Shown here: piece by piece, positions 454 through 57,395 of the stretch
Layout: each line of letters starts with the position of its first letter
How positions within the stretch are numbered: the first letter of the stretch is position 1
Assembly (NCBI GenBank): GCA_016214655.1
Contig: JACROC010000007.1
Span: 14,785-78,784, forward strand
Length of the DNA stretch: 64,000 bases
Reading direction: 5' to 3'
DNA from: Candidatus Harrisonbacteria bacterium
Lineage (GTDB): Bacteria; Patescibacteriota; Minisyncoccia; UBA6257; 02-FULL-45-10c
Notes under the pieces: generated by a model
The model's input: only the letters and a program-made list of their open reading frames with translations
Told to the model about the DNA's origin: nothing
The model's database searches: none
Position numbers and translations under genes: made by a program

Positions 454-1566
454 TTAACGCGCCATCCGAGACAAATCACTCATCGTGCCCCAAAACATGA
501 GTAAAAGAAAAATTGCAATTCCAAAAGTTTGGGCGGACATCTTAACCCTCCGACTAACCGGCCTGCGTAATACCATTTCAATCATCAAGAAAAATATCCT
601 GCCGCCGTCTATAGGATAGATCGGGAGAAGATTCATGAAACCGATTCCGATATTCAAGACCGCCGCCATCAGGACAAAACTCCTGATTCCATCCTTAAAG
701 GCAAGGTAGAGTAATTGGAAAATACCGATTGGCCCCATCACTTCCTCGGAAGGCCGCTGGCGAGATTTTTCCCGATCACCTTTTCCACGGACCACCAAAT
801 TTTTAGCCAACTGCCAGAAAAATTTTACCTGAAGAACCGTCAAAAGAGTGGTCAATTTGACCGATTCTCTGACGGATTCCGTAAAACCAGATCGCTTAAT
901 AATATAGACCGGTTCAATCCCGATATACCGCAATTTGATATTCCCGAATTCTTTTAGCCCCGGTCTAACCTTCACAAAAAGAGTCTTTTTATTTCGTAAA
1001 ATTTCCAGACTCAAGATTTCTCCCTGACTATCTTTAATCTTTTTAGTTAAATCTTCCCAACCGCCAACCGCTTTACCATTAACACTTCTAATTTCATCGC
1101 CGACCAGAACTCCGGCAACGGCAGCTGGCGAATCTTGCAAAACCTTAGACACTTTATAAGTCGGCTCCTTAAAGCCAAGAAAATAATGCAAAGAAAAAAA
1201 CAATAAAGTTCCCAGCAAAAGATTGGCGATGCTGCCGGCGGCAATGATAATCATCTGCTTCCAGCGCGACTTTGATTCCAAAGATCCAGCAACATCTCGC
1301 GGATCCCCTTGATAACCGGATTGCAACAACTCGTCTTCGCTAAGCGGCTTTACGTATCCGCCGAGCGGAATCCAGCCGATAGCATACTCAGTCTCGCCGA
1401 TATTCTTACTGAAAAGAGCGCGCCCGAAGCCAATAGAATATTTAAGAACTTTAACGTCAAATATTTTAGCGCAAACCAAATGGGCAAACTCATGAAAGGC
1501 GATAATAAAACAAAACGTGAAAACGATGGCGACTACCGCTAAAAACAGTTCCATGCGAATCTCCAT
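454..1566 (-). CDS. rseP: RIP metalloprotease RseP/site-2 protease (M50 family)
   Basis: HEFAHLV zinc motif in TM1, PDZ-like middle region, C-terminal LDGG motif. Confidence 0.8.
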   Translation of the reverse strand: MEIRMELFLAVVAIVFTFCFIIAFHEFAHLVCAKIFDVKVLKYSIGFGRALFSKNIGETEYAIGWIPLGGYVKPLSEDELLQSGYQGDPRDVAGSLESKSRWKQMIIIAAGSIANLLLGTLLFFSLHYFLGFKEPTYKVSKVLQDSPAAVAGVLVGDEIRSVNGKAVGGWEDLTKKIKDSQGEILSLEILRNKKTLFVKVRPGLKEFGNIKLRYIGIEPVYIIKRSGFTESVRESVKLTTLLTVLQVKFFWQLAKNLVVRGKGDREKSRQRPSEEVMGPIGIFQLLYLAFKDGIRSFVLMAAVLNIGIGFMNLLPIYPIDGGRIFFLMIEMVLRRPVSRRVKMSAQTFGIAIFLLLMFWGTMSDLSRMAR

Positions 1567-2305: not shown

Positions 2306-3400
2306 TTATAATCTCCGGCCGTCTTTATTAAACAAAAGCATACATCCATGTCCTTTGATATTGAAAGAGATATCATTTCTTCTATTCGTATCCCGGGCAG
2401 TTCCAGGCGGAGCATAAAGTAACGTTGGCAAACCGGATTCCTGCTGATGATAATGTACGATACTATCTACTTCTGAATTTTCAAAAATTTTTGCGAGTAG
2501 CGGGGCATTTAAACTTGCCTTCATTAATCCGGCAACAACTACTTCTCGCCTCTCATGATCAACCCCCAAGACATTAACCAAGGTATCCAACTCTCGTTTG
2601 CCGCGGCCGGTAGTTAAAAATCCTGATTTATGCCGGATAGCAATCGTACCAAATACAATTCCATTTTCCACGGCTTTAAACTTGGAAGAAAATTGATTCA
2701 TTGAATTCCTGATCTGTGATTGAGCATTTTCAGAAATAGCTTGCTCATCAACTAGGTGAGTGTGATAATACTCATCATTAACCATTTGCCAAACCCATTC
2801 TGCCAACTCCTGCTGCATAACAGGATGCACTCCTCTTTCTTTTGTAACGGCATATTTCTGCATAAGTCTTATGGTATCATTCGCAAAAACAACCCCCGCT
2901 CCTGAAGCCAGCAACACCTCATAAGCGGCGCGTATTAACTCCTCATGTTTGACATTAGAAAGCAATTTAAACCCAAACAAATGCGCGCGCGGAGCAACTT
3001 TCTTTACTTCATCAATAATCCTGGGCGCAATAGTAAAGTTAATCGGTATAATATCTCCGGGCTTAAAATTATGGCTGGGAAATTTGTCCCTAAACGGTTC
3101 CAATGGAATAAGATTGGCAACTGCAGCGCCAAGAACAACTGCATCCATTTTGGGAGCCAGCTCAAGAACAATGCGCCGATAATCTGCTATTCCGCTATGT
3201 TCATAAATCAAAAGATTGGGTTTAGAAAATGGCTTCTTTATTCCTAAATGAGAAGCGCAAACATAACTCACCTTCGCATCCTTCAAAAGCAGCTGGTCCG
3301 CCAGCTCGGCGATCAGGCCGCCCCGGAAACGATTGGTAATTATCTTTACCGCATCCAAATGAGCATGAACCGGCCCGGCGGTAATCAAAATATTTTTCAT
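2306..3400 (-). CDS. CoaB/DFP-like flavoprotein-family domain protein with an unidentified C-terminal domain
   Basis: N-terminal ILITAGPVHAHLDAVKIITNRFRGG resembles the phosphopantothenate-cysteine ligase (CoaB) signature ITAGPT.E.ID.VR.I.N; C-terminal half unassigned. Confidence 0.4.
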   Translation of the reverse strand: MKNILITAGPVHAHLDAVKIITNRFRGGLIAELADQLLLKDAKVSYVCASHLGIKKPFSKPNLLIYEHSGIADYRRIVLELAPKMDAVVLGAAVANLIPLEPFRDKFPSHNFKPGDIIPINFTIAPRIIDEVKKVAPRAHLFGFKLLSNVKHEELIRAAYEVLLASGAGVVFANDTIRLMQKYAVTKERGVHPVMQQELAEWVWQMVNDEYYHTHLVDEQAISENAQSQIRNSMNQFSSKFKAVENGIVFGTIAIRHKSGFLTTGRGKRELDTLVNVLGVDHERREVVVAGLMKASLNAPLLAKIFENSEVDSIVHYHQQESGLPTLLYAPPGTARDTNRRNDISFNIKGHGCMLLFNKDGRRL

Positions 3401-30393: not shown

Positions 30394-30483
30394 ATATCTT
30401 TCTGACATCTGACAAATAAGACGCAACACATGACAGATGACTACTAACAATTTACATTTTTTTTTAAAAAAAGTCTAGAAATA

Positions 30484-30510
30484 CGAAAGCCCCAACTGCT
30501 GTTGGGGCCA
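30484..30510 (-). terminator. hairpin terminator after the GC-rich gene
   Basis: agccccaacagcagttggggct plus T-run on minus strand. Confidence 0.45.
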
Positions 30511-30544
30511 CCTGCGAGGACCGCAGGATTTGGAGGGAACTGAG

Positions 30545-30858
30545 TCAGACGACCGCGAGCATCGTGGGGCGATCGGGGATCGCCTTGAAGAAGCCATGGC
30601 CACGGAGGTCCACCCCGTAGTACTTGGCGATCTTCTTGAGCACGCGCCGGCTGACCTTCCGCGGGAAGCGCGCCGCGATCTCATCGCGGACGAACAGTGC
30701 CTGCTCATGGCCGGTGAGCTGCTCCGGCAGCGGCGAGAGCTGCAACCGCACCATGAGCGGCGGCAGCGGCACGATGACGACCGGCTCCTCCACCTTCTTC
30801 CCCTTGGAGATACGAAGGAGATCCAGCAAGCTGCGGCTGATGCTCTTGAGGTTCATGA
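30545..30858 (-). CDS. hypothetical protein in an anomalously GC-rich (about 65%) insert
   Basis: 104 aa from MNLKSISRSLL; strong RBS agagggggtggagtc; palindrome TGAGACAGTAATGTCTCA in its 5' region. Confidence 0.5.
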
Positions 30859-30883
30859 CTCCACCCCCTCTTAACATTCTTGA

Positions 30884-30901
30884 GACATTACTGTCTCACA
30901 T
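30884..30901. promoter_or_regulatory. 6-bp/6-bp palindromic putative operator
   Basis: TGAGACattactGTCTCA between the putative promoter and the RBS of 30545..30858. Confidence 0.4.
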
Positions 30902-30980
30902 CAAAGTACTGATGCCACAATGGATTATTCATCCACCGTAACAATATAAATATAGCATACTTTAATAATTCTGTCAAGTG

Positions 30981-30997
30981 GTCGGACTGCTGGGAAT
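30981..30997 (-). repeat. 17-nt direct repeat of the tRNA-Pro 3' end (att-like)
   Basis: gtcggactgctgggaat identical to 31186-31202 (3' end of tRNA-Pro); the copy continues ..GACCA. Confidence 0.7.
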
Positions 30998-31048
30998 TTC
31001 GCTGCGCTTTTGGCTGGATAGCCCAAAAGCTTGCCGAACCCTTCCGCC

Positions 31049-31125
31049 TCACCCCGACCCCCGCTTAAGACACCTTCGGTTTCTTACGTCGCTTACGCTC
31101 CTATCTTCCTGATACGGGGTGAGGC
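31049..31125. other. long hairpin (10-bp GC stem, 58-nt loop) inside the tRNA-Pro repeat-bounded segment
   Basis: cctcaccccg ... cggggtgagg, followed by a tagttcgattcc T-loop-like sequence. Confidence 0.35.
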
Positions 31126-31186
31126 TAGTTCGATTCCTAAAACAAAAAATAATAAAAACCGAAATTAATTCGGTTTTTATTATTTG

Positions 31187-31257
31187 TCGGACTGCTGGGA
31201 ATCGAACCCAGGCCATATGCTCCCAAAGCATATATACTACCATTATACTACAGTCCG
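31187..31257 (-). tRNA. tRNA-Pro (TGG)
   Basis: CGGACTG acceptor, anticodon loop TTTGGGA, T-arm CTGGG-TTCGATT-CCCAG, discriminator A; terminator aaaaaccgaattaatttcggttttt follows. Confidence 0.8.
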
Positions 31258-32118: not shown

Positions 32119-32775
32119 TTATTTTTTTGTTTGTTCAGAGACTAACTTTTTGATAACTACTCCAATATCTTTTTGAGATTTCCACATCTCGCGTATTTGG
32201 GCACGCATTTTTTGATGTTGAGGATATCCGATATCTGCCCCTCCGTTCATCAGATCGGAAAATTCAAGATTGAGTAGTTCCGTCAATGATTCCTTGATAT
32301 CGTTGTAAACTAATTTAGAAAGTCCCTTGTCCAACAACTCTTTTCCGAATATATACCAAGTGTAAAAATGCAACAGTTCATGCATTATCGTGTTAGTGGA
32401 AAATTCCGAGCCGATTTTAACAAAAAAATAACTTTTCACGGTATTGTAAGTGCAACGCTCGTTATGCGTCAGATAAATAGTAATAACCGGGACAGTATAA
32501 GAAATCCCAAATATTTTTCCCATTCGTTCAATGAAAATCGGTTCGGCAATTTTCCATCTTTCTTCTATAGCGACAATTTCTTTATTCACGTCAAAGCCGC
32601 TTTCCTTGTCTCGTTCTTGAATAAAAGCTTTGACTTTTTCTGCTTCAAAATTATCGCCGTACTTTTCGGTAAATAAATTTTGAAACTTTGTTGGTTTCTT
32701 GCTGTTTATTGCTTTTGTTCCGTTTATGGTGTTTTCAACATCTTTATCTACGTCGTAAGCAAAATATAATTTCAT
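32119..32775 (-). CDS. HExxH putative metallopeptidase
   Basis: IMHELLHFYTW zinc-binding-like motif; 218 aa; family not assigned. Confidence 0.4.
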   Translation of the reverse strand: MKLYFAYDVDKDVENTINGTKAINSKKPTKFQNLFTEKYGDNFEAEKVKAFIQERDKESGFDVNKEIVAIEERWKIAEPIFIERMGKIFGISYTVPVITIYLTHNERCTYNTVKSYFFVKIGSEFSTNTIMHELLHFYTWYIFGKELLDKGLSKLVYNDIKESLTELLNLEFSDLMNGGADIGYPQHQKMRAQIREMWKSQKDIGVVIKKLVSEQTKK

Positions 32776-32784
32776 AAATTTGTT

Positions 32785-33159
32785 TCAAAATTCTAGCTTT
32801 CTACCTTTGTATTTAAAGGCTTCTTTTAAAAATTTATCTCCGTCTTTTGTGCCGTGTTCAATCATATGACAATTTGCACAAAGCAACATACATTTTTGTA
32901 GCTCAGATTTTATAGAATCCCAGCTTTTATTCGCTACATTGCCAATAGTAAATTCTTTTTCTCGTGGATTCTTGTGATGGAATTGCAATGCCGCTTGATT
33001 GCCACTCCAGTCACATTTTATACATTTATTCCCTAAGTATCTAATCGCGGCTGCCTTAGCTCGAAACCGCCTTATTTTCGTATTACACGATCCGCACCTG
33101 CTTCTTCCCTTTTTTTGATAATCTTTAAATTCATTGCAGCACAATTTACAAATTTCCAT
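32785..33159 (-). CDS. HNH endonuclease with N-terminal zinc ribbon
   Basis: CKLCC..CGSC N-terminal and CIKCDW..HHKNP..N..CANCH HNH core. Confidence 0.65.
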   Translation of the reverse strand: MEICKLCCNEFKDYQKKGRSRCGSCNTKIRRFRAKAAAIRYLGNKCIKCDWSGNQAALQFHHKNPREKEFTIGNVANKSWDSIKSELQKCMLLCANCHMIEHGTKDGDKFLKEAFKYKGRKLEF

Positions 33160-33244
33160 ATATTTCTAGTATAGCATATATTGTTCTACCGAGATAATTA
33201 ATTATTGCAATTCTTTTTATTCTTAGTAATATATTAAATATGAT

Positions 33245-33543
33245 GCCGCGGTAGCTCAGTGGTAGAGCGCAGCCCTAAATTCTTTGGGGCTTTCCATTGT
33301 AAAATGGATTGAAAAATCAGGTGAATTCGGGGAAAACTTTAATCGAGAGATTAAAACAATCCCGAGCCAAGCCGACACACATAATAATTTATGTGCGCGG
33401 AAGGTGTAGAGACTATCCCTTTATGGGAGTAGTCCCGCTCTGCGGGACGAAGCGCCTGACACCCATTAAATAATTGGGTGATGATATAGTCCAAATAGCT
33501 TCGGAAGAGGCTGGCGTCGAGTGTTCGATTCACTCCCGCGGCA
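33245..33543 (+). tRNA. tRNA (probably Phe-GAA) interrupted by a group I intron
   Basis: 5' exon GCCGCGGTAGCTCAGTGGTAGAGCGCAGCCCT; 3' exon GAAGAGGCTGGCGTCGAGTGTTCGATTCACTCCCGCGGCA; acceptor 7/7 bp and anticodon stem CAGCC/GGCTG pair across the insert. Confidence 0.55.
33277..33503 (+). ncRNA. group I intron (about 227 nt) in tRNA anticodon loop
   Basis: P1: exon AGCCCU pairs with internal guide GGGGCU with U.G at the splice site; GGAAGGTGTAGAGACTA and GATATAGTCCAAAT resemble the P3/P7 core of cyanobacterial tRNA-Leu introns; intron ends in G. Confidence 0.5.
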
Positions 33544-33572
33544 CACTTGACAAAATAAATATAGTATGCTAT
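33544..33572 (+). promoter_or_regulatory. consensus sigma70-type promoter
   Basis: TTGACA-17 nt-TATATT directly after the intron-containing tRNA, pointing into the GC-rich region. Confidence 0.45.
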
Positions 33573-33589
33573 ATTATATTTTATACGCT

Positions 33590-34210
33590 GTAGAACCTTG
33601 AAAACAACCAAACCTACCAATTTCCGGCCTCCGGCCACCCTAAATAAGGGTCGCCTGGTGCCGGGAGACGAGACGTGCATCCCCGAAGTGCTTCGATGAG
33701 GAGGCGCCAATGCACTGGCCGTAGCGCTGCCCCTTCCCAGAATGCTGGGGTGGCTAAAAACTGCTTCGGGTGGGAAGGGAGCCTGCTAAACACGAGGAAA
33801 AACCTTGTGTGGGAGGAAAAATGGACTGGCCCTAGTAAGGCCTAAGTAAAAAATGCCAGCCTATAACTCGGCTGGCACCCTTTGACTGAAAATCAACAGC
33901 CGACGGAGGATACTTGCGCCAACCAAGAATCACGGAAGAATGGGACCTGCGGGTCATCGATGATCCCCAATTCCTCTGCGTTCCGAGAGAAGAATTGGAA
34001 GACGAGGAACTGGGAGCGCGAAACCAACGGCAACCGCAGGACTATATCCCCCTTGAGTTGATCTCTGGGGAGAATATCGATGGATGCTGCCGCTGGCTAG
34101 TCTCGGACAACGCCCGGTACGGAGCGCGGGATCCACTGGAGATCCTACTTCGGAGAGAAGCGCGCCGCGAAAGAAGGAAACAGAAGCAACACCGTCCATA
34201 ACTCCTGCTT
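33590..34210 (+). other. GC-rich (about 57%) noncoding-looking region; candidate large structured RNA or foreign insert
   Basis: GC content far above flanks; many local stems (ccggcctccggcc, cccag/ctggg); only weak ORFs (33914..34201 lacks an RBS). Confidence 0.3.
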
Positions 34211-34215
34211 AGAAT

Positions 34216-34298
34216 GGGCTGGTGGCGGAATGGCAGACGCGGGGGACTTAAAATCCCCTGTCCGTAGGGACATATGGGTTCGACTCCCATCCTGCCCA
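34216..34298 (+). tRNA. tRNA-Leu (TAA)
   Basis: anticodon stem GGGGA/TCCCC, loop CTTAAAA, long variable arm TGTCCGTAGGGACAT, T-loop TTCGACT; one U-U mismatch in the acceptor stem. Confidence 0.7.
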
Positions 34299-34380
34299 TT
34301 GTAGGCAGAAACGATCAGCGGCTGATCTAAAATGCCGAACCCCGACAGAAATGTCGGGGTCATTTTTTATGAGATTATTA

Positions 34381-34980
34381 TTAAGATGAGTTTCGGACTA
34401 AATCGTCAAAAAGTTTCATTTTTTGGTTATATAAATCATTTAATTTATTAATCTCTTTAGTCTCTCCGTTCATTGTTTCTATTAATGCCTGAACGCTGGT
34501 ATTGTCTTTAAGATCCCCGGAAAATTTCAAAACCAGGGTTTGAAGCAAGCTGTTAAGAACATCATTATAGACTATCAGATGAGTTATAAGCGATACCTCG
34601 TGGCCAACCGCTTCCATTACAACATTTCTCGCTTTTACCGGTTTAATACCGGCCGCCGAGCGGGCCATCTTATCTAATTCGGCGGTAAGGCTGATAGCTT
34701 TTTTCCGGGATTCTTGGGCTTGATCAAGTTCTGCCCTAACCAATTCCAATGCCTTGTTAAATCGGTTACGCCGATCTGCCTCGGAAATTTCACTCAATCT
34801 AGCAAGAGATTCTTCCGCGGATTTTACAATATCCTTAGCAATTAATGCCCCCTGCCTTCTGGCCTCTGTAAAATTATCCGGCACAAAACCTATGCCGATC
34901 AAATAATAACCGGTAAAATAAAACGCTACAATAAGAAGCGCCAATGTGACTGTTCTTTTCATACTCTTTCTTAAAGTCAT
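34381..34980 (-). CDS. membrane-anchored coiled-coil protein
   Basis: N-terminal TM then charged helical region. Confidence 0.45.
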   Translation of the reverse strand: MTLRKSMKRTVTLALLIVAFYFTGYYLIGIGFVPDNFTEARRQGALIAKDIVKSAEESLARLSEISEADRRNRFNKALELVRAELDQAQESRKKAISLTAELDKMARSAAGIKPVKARNVVMEAVGHEVSLITHLIVYNDVLNSLLQTLVLKFSGDLKDNTSVQALIETMNGETKEINKLNDLYNQKMKLFDDLVRNSS

Positions 34981-56939: not shown

Positions 56940-57309
56940 GGGGATGAAAAGCTTCGACAATTTATTTTCTGTCAGGTTCGCAAGCTGAGCTGAATTAACT
57001 CGTAAAACTAATTCAAAATTATAAGTGCAAACTTATTCAATCGTCAGCCAGCTTACGCTTTAGCGTAATTTATCCCGGCCTTAGCGTCGGGACTGGCCAT
57101 CGATCAGCCAAAGCTTGATAGGCTGCCAATCGGTGTCATACATCAAGCTCTGCCTTGATAAACCGAGTATCAAAGCGAATTGCAATCGGTAAAGAGAATA
57201 GCGTATTTTGTTAGATCTAAACGTTATTCTCTATAAATTTAATCTAACTAAGCTTGTAGAAAATTTGGCGGGTATAATTTGGACGCGGATGCAATTTCCG
57301 CCATCTCCA
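56940..57309 (+). ncRNA. ssrA: tmRNA (SsrA)
   Basis: 5' GGGGATGAAAAGCTTCGAC (consensus GGGG.UGA..GGAUUCGAC); 3' GGACGCGGATGCAATTTCCGCCATCTCCAC (E. coli GGACGCGGGUUCAACUCCCGCCAGCUCCACCA); acceptor GGGGATG pairs with CATCTCC; tag ORF 57027-57068 GCA.. = ANLFNRQPAYALA stop. Confidence 0.7.
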
Positions 57310-57395
57310 CAAATAAAAAAGACGGTCCCATAACCGCCCATAACTTTTCTGCCTGACTATCAAACTAAAATTTACCTCTACAAAAATCATTAGAA

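Follow-up and report, generated by a model that had tools for sequence, protein, structure and literature searches.

A probable small-protein/tRNA-Leu operon with a structured leader in Candidatus Harrisonbacteria

Features of the locus

The region described here, positions 33547-34370 of a 64-kb stretch of Candidatus Harrisonbacteria DNA (the window), is probably a compact operon of this Candidate Phyla Radiation (CPR/Patescibacteria) bacterium, comprising a promoter, a structured leader, a gene for a protein of 95 amino acids (aa), tRNA-Leu and a terminator. An earlier note on the same DNA had proposed a large structured non-coding RNA (ncRNA) of ~630 nucleotides (nt); the locus is real, but a more ordinary object than that. 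The best reading is a translation-controlled small-protein/tRNA operon that is absent from the GenBank annotation. Its features are listed below, with Shine-Dalgarno sequences abbreviated as SD, open reading frames as ORF and minimum-free-energy folds as MFE.

33547-33575 (+): sigma-70-type promoter, with -35 TTGACA at 33547-33552, a 17-nt spacer and -10 TATATT at 33570-33575
33582-33913 (+): 5' leader of ~330 nt, 54% GC, with a series of hairpins and two mini-ORFs, and without a conserved long ORF
33698-33724 (+): mini-ORF 1, with SD GAGGAGG at 33698-33704, a 5-nt spacer and ATG CAC TGG CCG TAG at 33710-33724
33730-33779 (+): long hairpin H3, CCCCUUCCCA ... UGGGAAGGG, present in the MFE fold
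33791-33809 (+): hairpin H4, CACGAGG-aaaaa-CCUUGUG, present in the MFE fold
33811-33835 (+): mini-ORF 2, with SD GGGAGG at 33811-33816, a 4-nt spacer and ATG GAC TGG CCC TAG at 33821-33835
33854-33877 (+): hairpin H5, UGCCAGCC-uauaacuc-GGCUGGCA, followed by CCCUUUG at 33878-33884
33905-33909 (+): SD GGAGG, 4 nt before the TTG start of the 95-aa gene
33914-34201 (+): 95-aa protein gene with TTG start, recognised from its homologues, codon-position pattern and ribosome-binding site
34215/6-34299 (+): tRNA-Leu(UAA), placed at 34215-34299 by ARAGORN and scoring 54.2 bits with the Rfam tRNA model
34205-34309 (+): extended tRNA-Leu acceptor stem, from flanks CUGCUUAgAAU (34205-34215) and AUUgUAGGCAG (34299-34309)
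34339-34370 (+): intrinsic terminator, ACCCCGACA-gaaa-TGTCGGGGT plus a T-run, with no earlier terminator-like site 3' of the promoter on the plus strand

The promoter begins 4 nt past the 3' end of tRNA-Phe and is of the extended -10 type, with TG at 33567-33568 (TGn). It had been called perfect; its presence was confirmed, with a match at 11 of 12 positions and with coordinates shifted by 3 nt from those first given. The window has two occurrences of the 29-nt pattern TTGACA-N11-GTATGCTATATT, where 0.07 would be expected, and an equivalent promoter occupies the orthologous place in the loci L001, L004, L006, L008 and L012. Transcription would start at ~33582. The GC content is 54.3% over 33576-34214 and 55.2% over 33600-34215, compared with 40.2% for the window, so that the GC enrichment reported previously was reproduced at 54-55% rather than ~57%. 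Segments of 640 nt reaching at least 55% GC were found only in this island and in one at ~30450-31140.

Coding evidence for the 95-aa gene

The earlier note had seen no convincing ORF in this region and no ribosome-binding site before 33914-34201, and the comparative data contradict both statements. Homologues of the 95-aa ORF were found in four other genomes or contigs, which makes the ORF conserved in five loci. A word-indexed search returned P0001 (92 aa, 61% identity), a profile search added P0005 (110 aa, 60%) and P0003 (68 aa, C-terminal half), and the fifth family member is ORF1 of L012. Between the window and L001, the differences at codon positions 1/2/3 number 26/22/51, with non-synonymous and synonymous difference proportions (pN and pS) of 0.26 and 0.67 and a dN/dS of ~0.19, as under purifying selection. 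Two other pairwise comparisons are likewise dominated by third positions (34/21/56 and 29/28/53), and over all three pN ranges from 0.26 to 0.30 and pS from 0.67 to 0.82. The GGAGG sequence is kept in L001, L004, L005 and L012, in L001 with the same arrangement. Protein homologues and a third-position pattern, the two signs of coding that had been named beforehand as speaking against a large ncRNA, were thus both found for the 3' 45% of the region, and on these comparisons the 95-aa gene is judged real and conserved.

The exact 95-aa sequence is absent from the protein collection and the ORF is therefore unannotated in the source metagenome-assembled genome (MAG); the flanking ORF199 corresponds to the annotated HZB99_03905 (100% identical). 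A GTDB genome scan for homologues returned the L001 genome only, and two metagenome_contigs scans, one IMG/VR scan and tblastn against phages and plasmids gave no further homologues. An exhaustive HMMER search yielded P0003 as the only new member, along with two repetitive, evidently spurious proteins. A 58-aa ORF of L008, which follows a similar promoter and a 270-nt leader, was considered as a family member and dropped, as it has no detectable relation.

Gene order was compared in the same loci. L001, L004, L006 and L012 share with the window the succession of a tRNA, the promoter, a small ORF, (tRNA-Leu), a ~200-aa gene on the opposite strand, tRNA-Gly and an extracytoplasmic function (ECF)-type sigma factor. 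P0001 lies in a Candidatus Paceibacter MAG in the order tRNA-Arg, tRNA-Phe, promoter, leader, ORF, tRNA-Leu, ~200-aa opposite-strand gene, tRNA-Gly and ECF-type sigma factor. Judged from these alignments of gene order, the arrangement of promoter, leader, ORF and tRNA-Leu is conserved among related CPR bacteria.

The N-terminal part of the protein is acidic and predicted to be disordered, and the C-terminal part carries the conserved motif G-x-RDPLEILLRRE-x-RRERRK, of which RRExRRERRK is invariant in four homologues. An AlphaFold2 (AF2) model computed from a four-sequence alignment had a mean predicted local distance difference test score (pLDDT) of 61 and a predicted template modelling score of 0.26. 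Only the helix spanning residues 74-92, which carries RDPLEILLRRE-x-RRERRK, was confident (pLDDT ~80-87), with the rest below 62, and the confidence of the model was too low to justify a fold search. Pfam, NCBIfam, PHROGs, PADLOC and the PDB sequences gave no match above noise for the ORF or its homologues. By analogy with lambda N, such a combination of disorder, small size and an arginine-rich helix points to RNA binding.

The leader and its hairpins

The many local inverted repeats pointed out previously were confirmed as hairpins, and folding of the whole region exceeds that of shuffled sequences with z = -3.3, compared with z = -3.65 for the leader alone. The L012 leader folds with z = -5.5 and has its modules in the same order as the window: H3, H4, mini-ORF, H5, CCCUUUG, a CA-rich spacer, GGAGG and the start codon. 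Leader length varies from ~330 nt in the window and L012 to ~200 nt in L001 and ~90 nt in L004. The L012 counterpart of H3, CCUCUCCCA...UGGGAGAGG, has two pairs changed on both sides, and at the place of H4 there is a hairpin of unrelated sequence (GCGCAG..CUGCGC). H5 is found in all five loci with differing stems, GCCAGCC/GGCUGGC, GCCGGC/GCCGGC and CCGUCGAUC/GAUCGGCGG among them and a bulged CCGG stem in L005; the stem measures 7-11 bp and the loop, of 8-14 nt, keeps UAAC or GAAC throughout. The earlier proposal of a structured RNA thus holds for the 5' ~330 nt, where hairpins recur with compensatory changes, although as an mRNA leader and with the 3' part being coding. On this sequence evidence, the leader is a non-coding conserved structured RNA element.

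The CCUUUG that follows H5 is predicted to pair with the SD region CGGAGG (33904-33909) as the base of a small hairpin. This anti-SD:SD helix appears in the local MFE of four of the five loci (window, L001, L004 and L012) and in the RNAalifold consensus, whose inner stem shows three both-side changes. The predicted pairing suggests that H5 and CCCUUU may form an SD-sequestering module. A scan for a stem with an AAC loop followed by CCCTT returned only leaders of the ORF95 family, with a single such hairpin in the 64-kb window, and a role of H5/CCCUUU as a regulon-wide operator was ruled out on this result.

Mini-ORFs in the leader

Mini-ORF 1 reads fMet-His-Trp-Pro-stop and is near-identical to AGGAGGcgtcTTGAACTGGCCGTAG of L012; mini-ORF 2 reads fMet-Asp-Trp-Pro-stop, and its L001 counterpart is ATGACGTGGCCCTAG. 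The pattern DTG-NNN-TGG-CCN-TAG occurs twice in the window, both times in the leader, against 0.05 occurrences expected, and elsewhere among all fetched loci only in the L001 and L012 leaders. Over the four copies, from three genomes, codon 2 encodes His, Asp, Thr or Asn, Pro is encoded by CCG or CCC, and both ATG and TTG occur as start codon. Every copy has an SD-like sequence 4-5 nt upstream (AGGAGG-5 nt-TTG in L012 and AGGTG-4 nt-ATG in L001). Read at the codon level, such variation is as expected of a translated fMet-X-Trp-Pro-stop peptide, not of an RNA motif. L004 and L005 lack the mini-ORF, which makes it accessory and not essential to the gene. An upstream ORF of greater length with Trp-Pro-stop at its end was considered and discarded, as it exists in L012 only (46 aa, poor SD); in the window, the frame of the mini-ORF is already closed 22 codons before it, and no start codon occurs in that interval.

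tRNA-Leu, terminator and probable co-transcription

The tRNA-Leu(TAA) reported at 34216 was confirmed by ARAGORN and Rfam, with a cloverleaf, a long variable arm and anticodon UAA. The stop codon of the ORF lies 14 nt before it, both in the window and in L001. Its flanks add ~10 pairs to the acceptor stem, the extended stem is present in the MFE fold (z = -3.8) and CCA is not encoded. Flank complementarity was also found in L001 (CCUGC...GCAGG), L010 and L012. On the plus strand of 33576-34338, no promoter-like or terminator-like site was found, and the ORF and tRNA-Leu are therefore likely to share one transcript, which most likely runs from the promoter through leader, ORF and tRNA-Leu to the terminator.

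Related tRNA-like sequences were noted in other loci. A degenerate tRNA-Leu(UAA)-like element with an enlarged D region and no long variable arm lies at 870-955 (-) in L012 and 3150-3245 (-) in L010, between the type-1 ORF and a weakly related second small ORF (KDPLDLLIAREER). It is flanked by a 12-nt inverted repeat with 11 of 12 positions complementary (CCTGCATAGAAT / ATTGTATGCAGG), was not called by ARAGORN and, in the L012 copy, scored 23 bits with Rfam at a threshold of 29. In L012, both small ORFs beside the element carry a DPL[ED]xL motif. In L004, a contig from Hainich groundwater, the place of tRNA-Leu is taken at 1349-1444 (+) by a 31-aa ORF that has a GGAG of its own and is followed by a terminator.

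Searches for known RNA families

The Rfam scan that had been suggested as a check was run with release 15, using cmscan with permissive filters at E <= 10 on 33200-34400 and at the gathering score on the whole window. In 33200-34400, it returned only a group I intron that lies outside the region, the tRNA and noise. RNase P RNA and signal recognition particle (SRP) RNA were matched neither there nor in the window, GOLLD, ROOL, OLE, HEARO and raiA had no match in the window or the L012 region, and no family matched the orthologous region and leader of L012. A T-box leader was rejected on two grounds, namely that RF00230 had no match at E <= 10, and that UGGC of the mini-ORF would need a discriminator G where tRNA-Leu has A.

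Neighbourhood

Upstream of the promoter lies tRNA-Phe(GAA) at 33245-33543 (+), whose anticodon loop is split behind U33 by a group I intron of 227 nt at 33277-33503 (Rfam RF00028, 92 bits). The intron-split tRNA is missed by ARAGORN and had not been recognised in the earlier note; the L001 tRNA-Phe is intronless. Beside it, 32119-33159 (-) is a 1.1-kb AT-rich insertion by comparison with L001, in which 40 nt separate tRNA-Arg from tRNA-Phe. The insertion contains a 218-aa ORF with a weak SprT-like match and a 124-aa ORF with a weak HNH match.

The second GC-rich island, at 30488-30980 (-), has 64-67% GC, a near-identical promoter (30977-30949) and a 103-aa ORF (30856-30545, annotated as hypothetical HZB99_03865) with a third-position GC content (GC3) of 0.90 in a 40% GC genome. 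The corresponding slot of L001 holds an unrelated 94-aa ORF with GC3 0.97, and the conserved promoter and the two terminal hairpins are common to both slots. Phages, plasmids, IMG/VR, Pfam, PHROGs and PADLOC gave no match to either ORF. The slot looks like a cassette slot holding very foreign DNA. Between the terminator hairpin of tRNA-Pro and the promoter of this island, a structured element of ~165 nt (30981-31146 (-), with 31186-31202) has at its end 17 nt that repeat the 3' end of tRNA-Pro exactly and are followed by CCA. Over its 3' ~85 nt it is nearly the same as in L016 (1455-1540, minus), where it ends in a tRNA-Pro-type 3' end resembling that of L001; L001 shares the direct-repeat layout but differs in the interior, and Rfam gave no match to the element at E <= 5. 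Elsewhere in the window, 56940-57312 (+) is a standard one-piece transfer-messenger RNA (Rfam, 125 bits).

Proposed mechanism

In the operon reading, the strong sigma-70 promoter directly 3' of tRNA-Phe would drive one transcript consisting of the ~330-nt leader, the 95-aa gene, tRNA-Leu(UAA) and the intrinsic terminator. The tRNA-Leu, which has no promoter of its own, would be freed from the mRNA by RNase P and 3' processing. Expression of the 95-aa protein would be controlled post-transcriptionally: the conserved CCCUUU beside H5 would pair with the SD of the gene and hold translation low, and the one or two SD-preceded, four-codon mini-ORFs (fMet-X-Trp-Pro-UAG) would load ribosomes whose termination may be slow after Pro. 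These ribosomes might either remodel the leader or protect the mRNA. More speculatively, the most likely target of the protein would be a nucleic acid: probably an RNA, and possibly the hairpin of its own leader.

Several observations weigh against this scheme. We infer the transcription start, the co-transcription and the translation of the mini-ORFs alike. The family is tiny: besides five independent loci it has "type-2" paralogues whose link to it is weak (hhalign probability 84%), and the covariation statistics are weak because there are only these five loci. The antisense strand folds as well as the sense strand (z = -4.2 for the whole region and -3.8 for the leader), so that the fold z-scores by themselves are not strand-specific evidence. 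The anti-SD helix is weak (two G-C, one A-U and two G-U pairs, plus one more G-C), it is outside the L005 MFE, and when the window leader is folded at full length, the SD pairs in the MFE with another segment upstream. As to the mini-ORFs, their absence from the L004 and L005 leaders counts here as well, and no structural link was found between their occupancy and release of the SD. An erm-like model was abandoned: pairing of the mini-ORF with the 5' arm of H5 works in the window and L001, but L012 lacks the complementarity.

The fullest form of the proposal is unlikely in our estimation. It would make the fMet-X-Trp-Pro-UAG mini-ORFs new minimal ribosome-parking or termination-pausing leader peptides that act with H5 and the anti-SD to set translation of a CPR-restricted, arginine-rich RNA-binding protein; this protein would be deliberately co-expressed with tRNA-Leu(UAA) and might have as its target either the hairpin of its own leader or the tRNA-Leu precursor with the extended stem.

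Alternative explanations

A stand-alone large structured ncRNA at 33576-34215, such as a reduced RNase P RNA or a GOLLD/ROOL/OLE-like RNA beside a tRNA, is now very improbable. The region is indeed GC-rich in an AT-rich genome, folds better than shuffles and adjoins tRNAs. Rfam, however, gave no match at E <= 10 for it or for its L012 orthologue, the fold of the antisense strand is just as strong, leader length varies from ~90 to ~330 nt between orthologues, and the 3' 288 nt, or 45%, are a protein gene with a ribosome-binding site under purifying selection; a stand-alone ncRNA gene was rejected on the conservation of the ORF in five loci, its 26/22/51 codon-position pattern and its pN/pS values of 0.26/0.67. 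The suggestion of foreign DNA, also raised previously, can be phrased as a mobile-element remnant integrated beside the tRNAs, with the 95-aa protein as a regulator of the element (for example, an N-like RNA-binding antiterminator or an excision/immunity cofactor) and the leader as its regulatory region rather than a host function. This we consider quite unlikely. The ORF has a GC content of 0.56 and a GC3 of 0.59, above host genes (GC3 0.31-0.45), and P0005 lies beside a divergent Phage_AlpA gene (AlpA-family genes being mobile-element regulators) on a 53% GC contig, which lends the suggestion weak support. The neighbourhood is also plastic relative to L001 (group I intron in tRNA-Phe, 1.1-kb insertion with an HNH-like ORF), the tRNA-Pro 3' end is duplicated nearby and a second island has the same promoter with GC3 0.90. 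Against these points, the gene keeps its syntenic position in three or more CPR genomes with saturated synonymous sites, which argues for long residence or vertical descent, and the promoter is host-like and AT-rich. Further, no integrase, att repeat or other mobile-element gene flanks the 95-aa gene in the window, and no match was found in IMG/VR, INPHARED phages, PLSDB plasmids, PHROGs or PADLOC.

Also on the unlikely side is that the conserved 3' module of the leader is an RNA thermometer or a protein-binding operator, in which H5 and CCCUUU:GGAGG would set translation by melting or by being bound by the arginine-rich helix of the ORF, and the "mini-ORFs" would be an untranslated RNA motif, CUGGCCNUAG. 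The anti-SD helix in the MFE of four of the five loci is compatible with this, the constancy of the UAAC/GAAC loop of H5 in five loci with a varying stem is as in a recognised hairpin, and L004 and L005 lack the mini-ORF yet keep H5 and CCCUUU. The U-rich pairing with the SD also resembles fourU-type thermometers, which pair a U-rich stretch with the SD through G-U and A-U pairs. A purely untranslated motif is at odds with the presence, at correct spacing, of its own SD before every mini-ORF copy and with the codon-like variation (codon 2 free, CCG/CCC synonymous, start ATG/TTG). No thermometer family of Rfam was matched.

Implications

The probable small-protein/tRNA operon adds a gene missed by automated annotation in a CPR genome and defines a small-protein family without recognised relatives. 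It also illustrates that, where the genome is AT-rich, high GC and many hairpins beside tRNAs do not by themselves make an island a large ncRNA. The points of interest, on the comparison of five loci, are the mini-ORF and anti-SD leader and the arginine-rich protein family. If the mini-ORFs and the anti-SD act as proposed, Patescibacteria, in which gene regulation has hardly been explored, would have their first described regulator of the leader-peptide type, and the four-codon mini-ORF would be an unusually minimal case of termination-linked control. Finally, the mRNA-tRNA co-transcript with an extended acceptor-stem duplex would be a concrete RNA-processing substrate in reduced genomes.

Comparison with known systems

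Termination-arresting leader peptides are established in TnaC and PepNL (PMC8450073, PMC11890864). As in these and in the erm/cat attenuators, the leader has a short, SD-preceded ORF in a structured RNA upstream of a gene whose SD is predicted to be sequestered; in common with leader-peptide attenuators, the short ORF has its own SD and the peptide is kept while neutral positions vary (three genomes). A C-terminal Pro slows termination (PMC8450073, PMC11890864 and the Hayes/Sunohara references cited there), and the mini-ORF peptide ends in Pro-stop, a release-slowing context. Trp and Pro, the conserved residues of the mini-ORF peptide, also recall TnaC. Unlike TnaC and PepNL, the mini-ORF has only four codons, too short for tunnel-dependent arrest, ends in UAG (RF1) rather than UGA and has no sequence homology to them. 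That it works like TnaC/PepNL is a lead only, because a four-residue peptide cannot use the exit tunnel. The leader also differs from leader-peptide attenuators in that no alternative pairing kept across the loci was found to connect the mini-ORF with the SD downstream, and in that there are two mini-ORF copies in this genome and none in two orthologues.

As in the fourU/ROSE thermometers, GGAGG would be paired with the U run of CCCUUU by weak pairs, A-U and G-U, that form the base of a small hairpin immediately upstream of the start codon. The leader differs from them in that Rfam gives no match here, a very stable GC hairpin with a conserved loop flanks the element, and the regulated gene is neither a heat-shock nor a virulence gene.

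The protein itself is reminiscent of lambda N and P22 N in being small (~95 aa) and mostly disordered, with an arginine-rich helix (LLRREARRERRKQKQ); the arginine-rich stretch of lambda N reads ..TRRRERRAEKQ... As with lambda N and boxB, a conserved hairpin with a conserved loop lies in the same transcript, and one homologue has a mobile-element context. In contrast to lambda N, the arginine-rich motif is C-terminal instead of N-terminal and there is no sequence homology; nor is there a nut-like boxA, or a terminator to read through before the operon end. BoxB has a 5-bp stem and a GNRA-like pentaloop, unlike H5 with its 7-11-bp stem and 8-14-nt loop with UAAC/GAAC. H5 as a boxB was ruled out on this geometry and on the absence of a downstream terminator before the operon end.

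Protein-encoding tRNA operons of Escherichia coli include thrU-tyrU-glyT-thrT-tufB and tyrT-tpr, the latter with the small, arginine-rich, "protamine-like" Tpr. Unlike in these, the ORF precedes the tRNA, with 14 nt between, the tRNA flanks form an extended stem, a long and, as proposed, regulated leader is present, and the protein has no homology to Tpr or EF-Tu. As in tyrT-tpr, the protein is tiny and arginine-rich, and, as in tRNA-protein operons at large, the mRNA and the tRNA would share a promoter and need RNase P or other processing to separate them.

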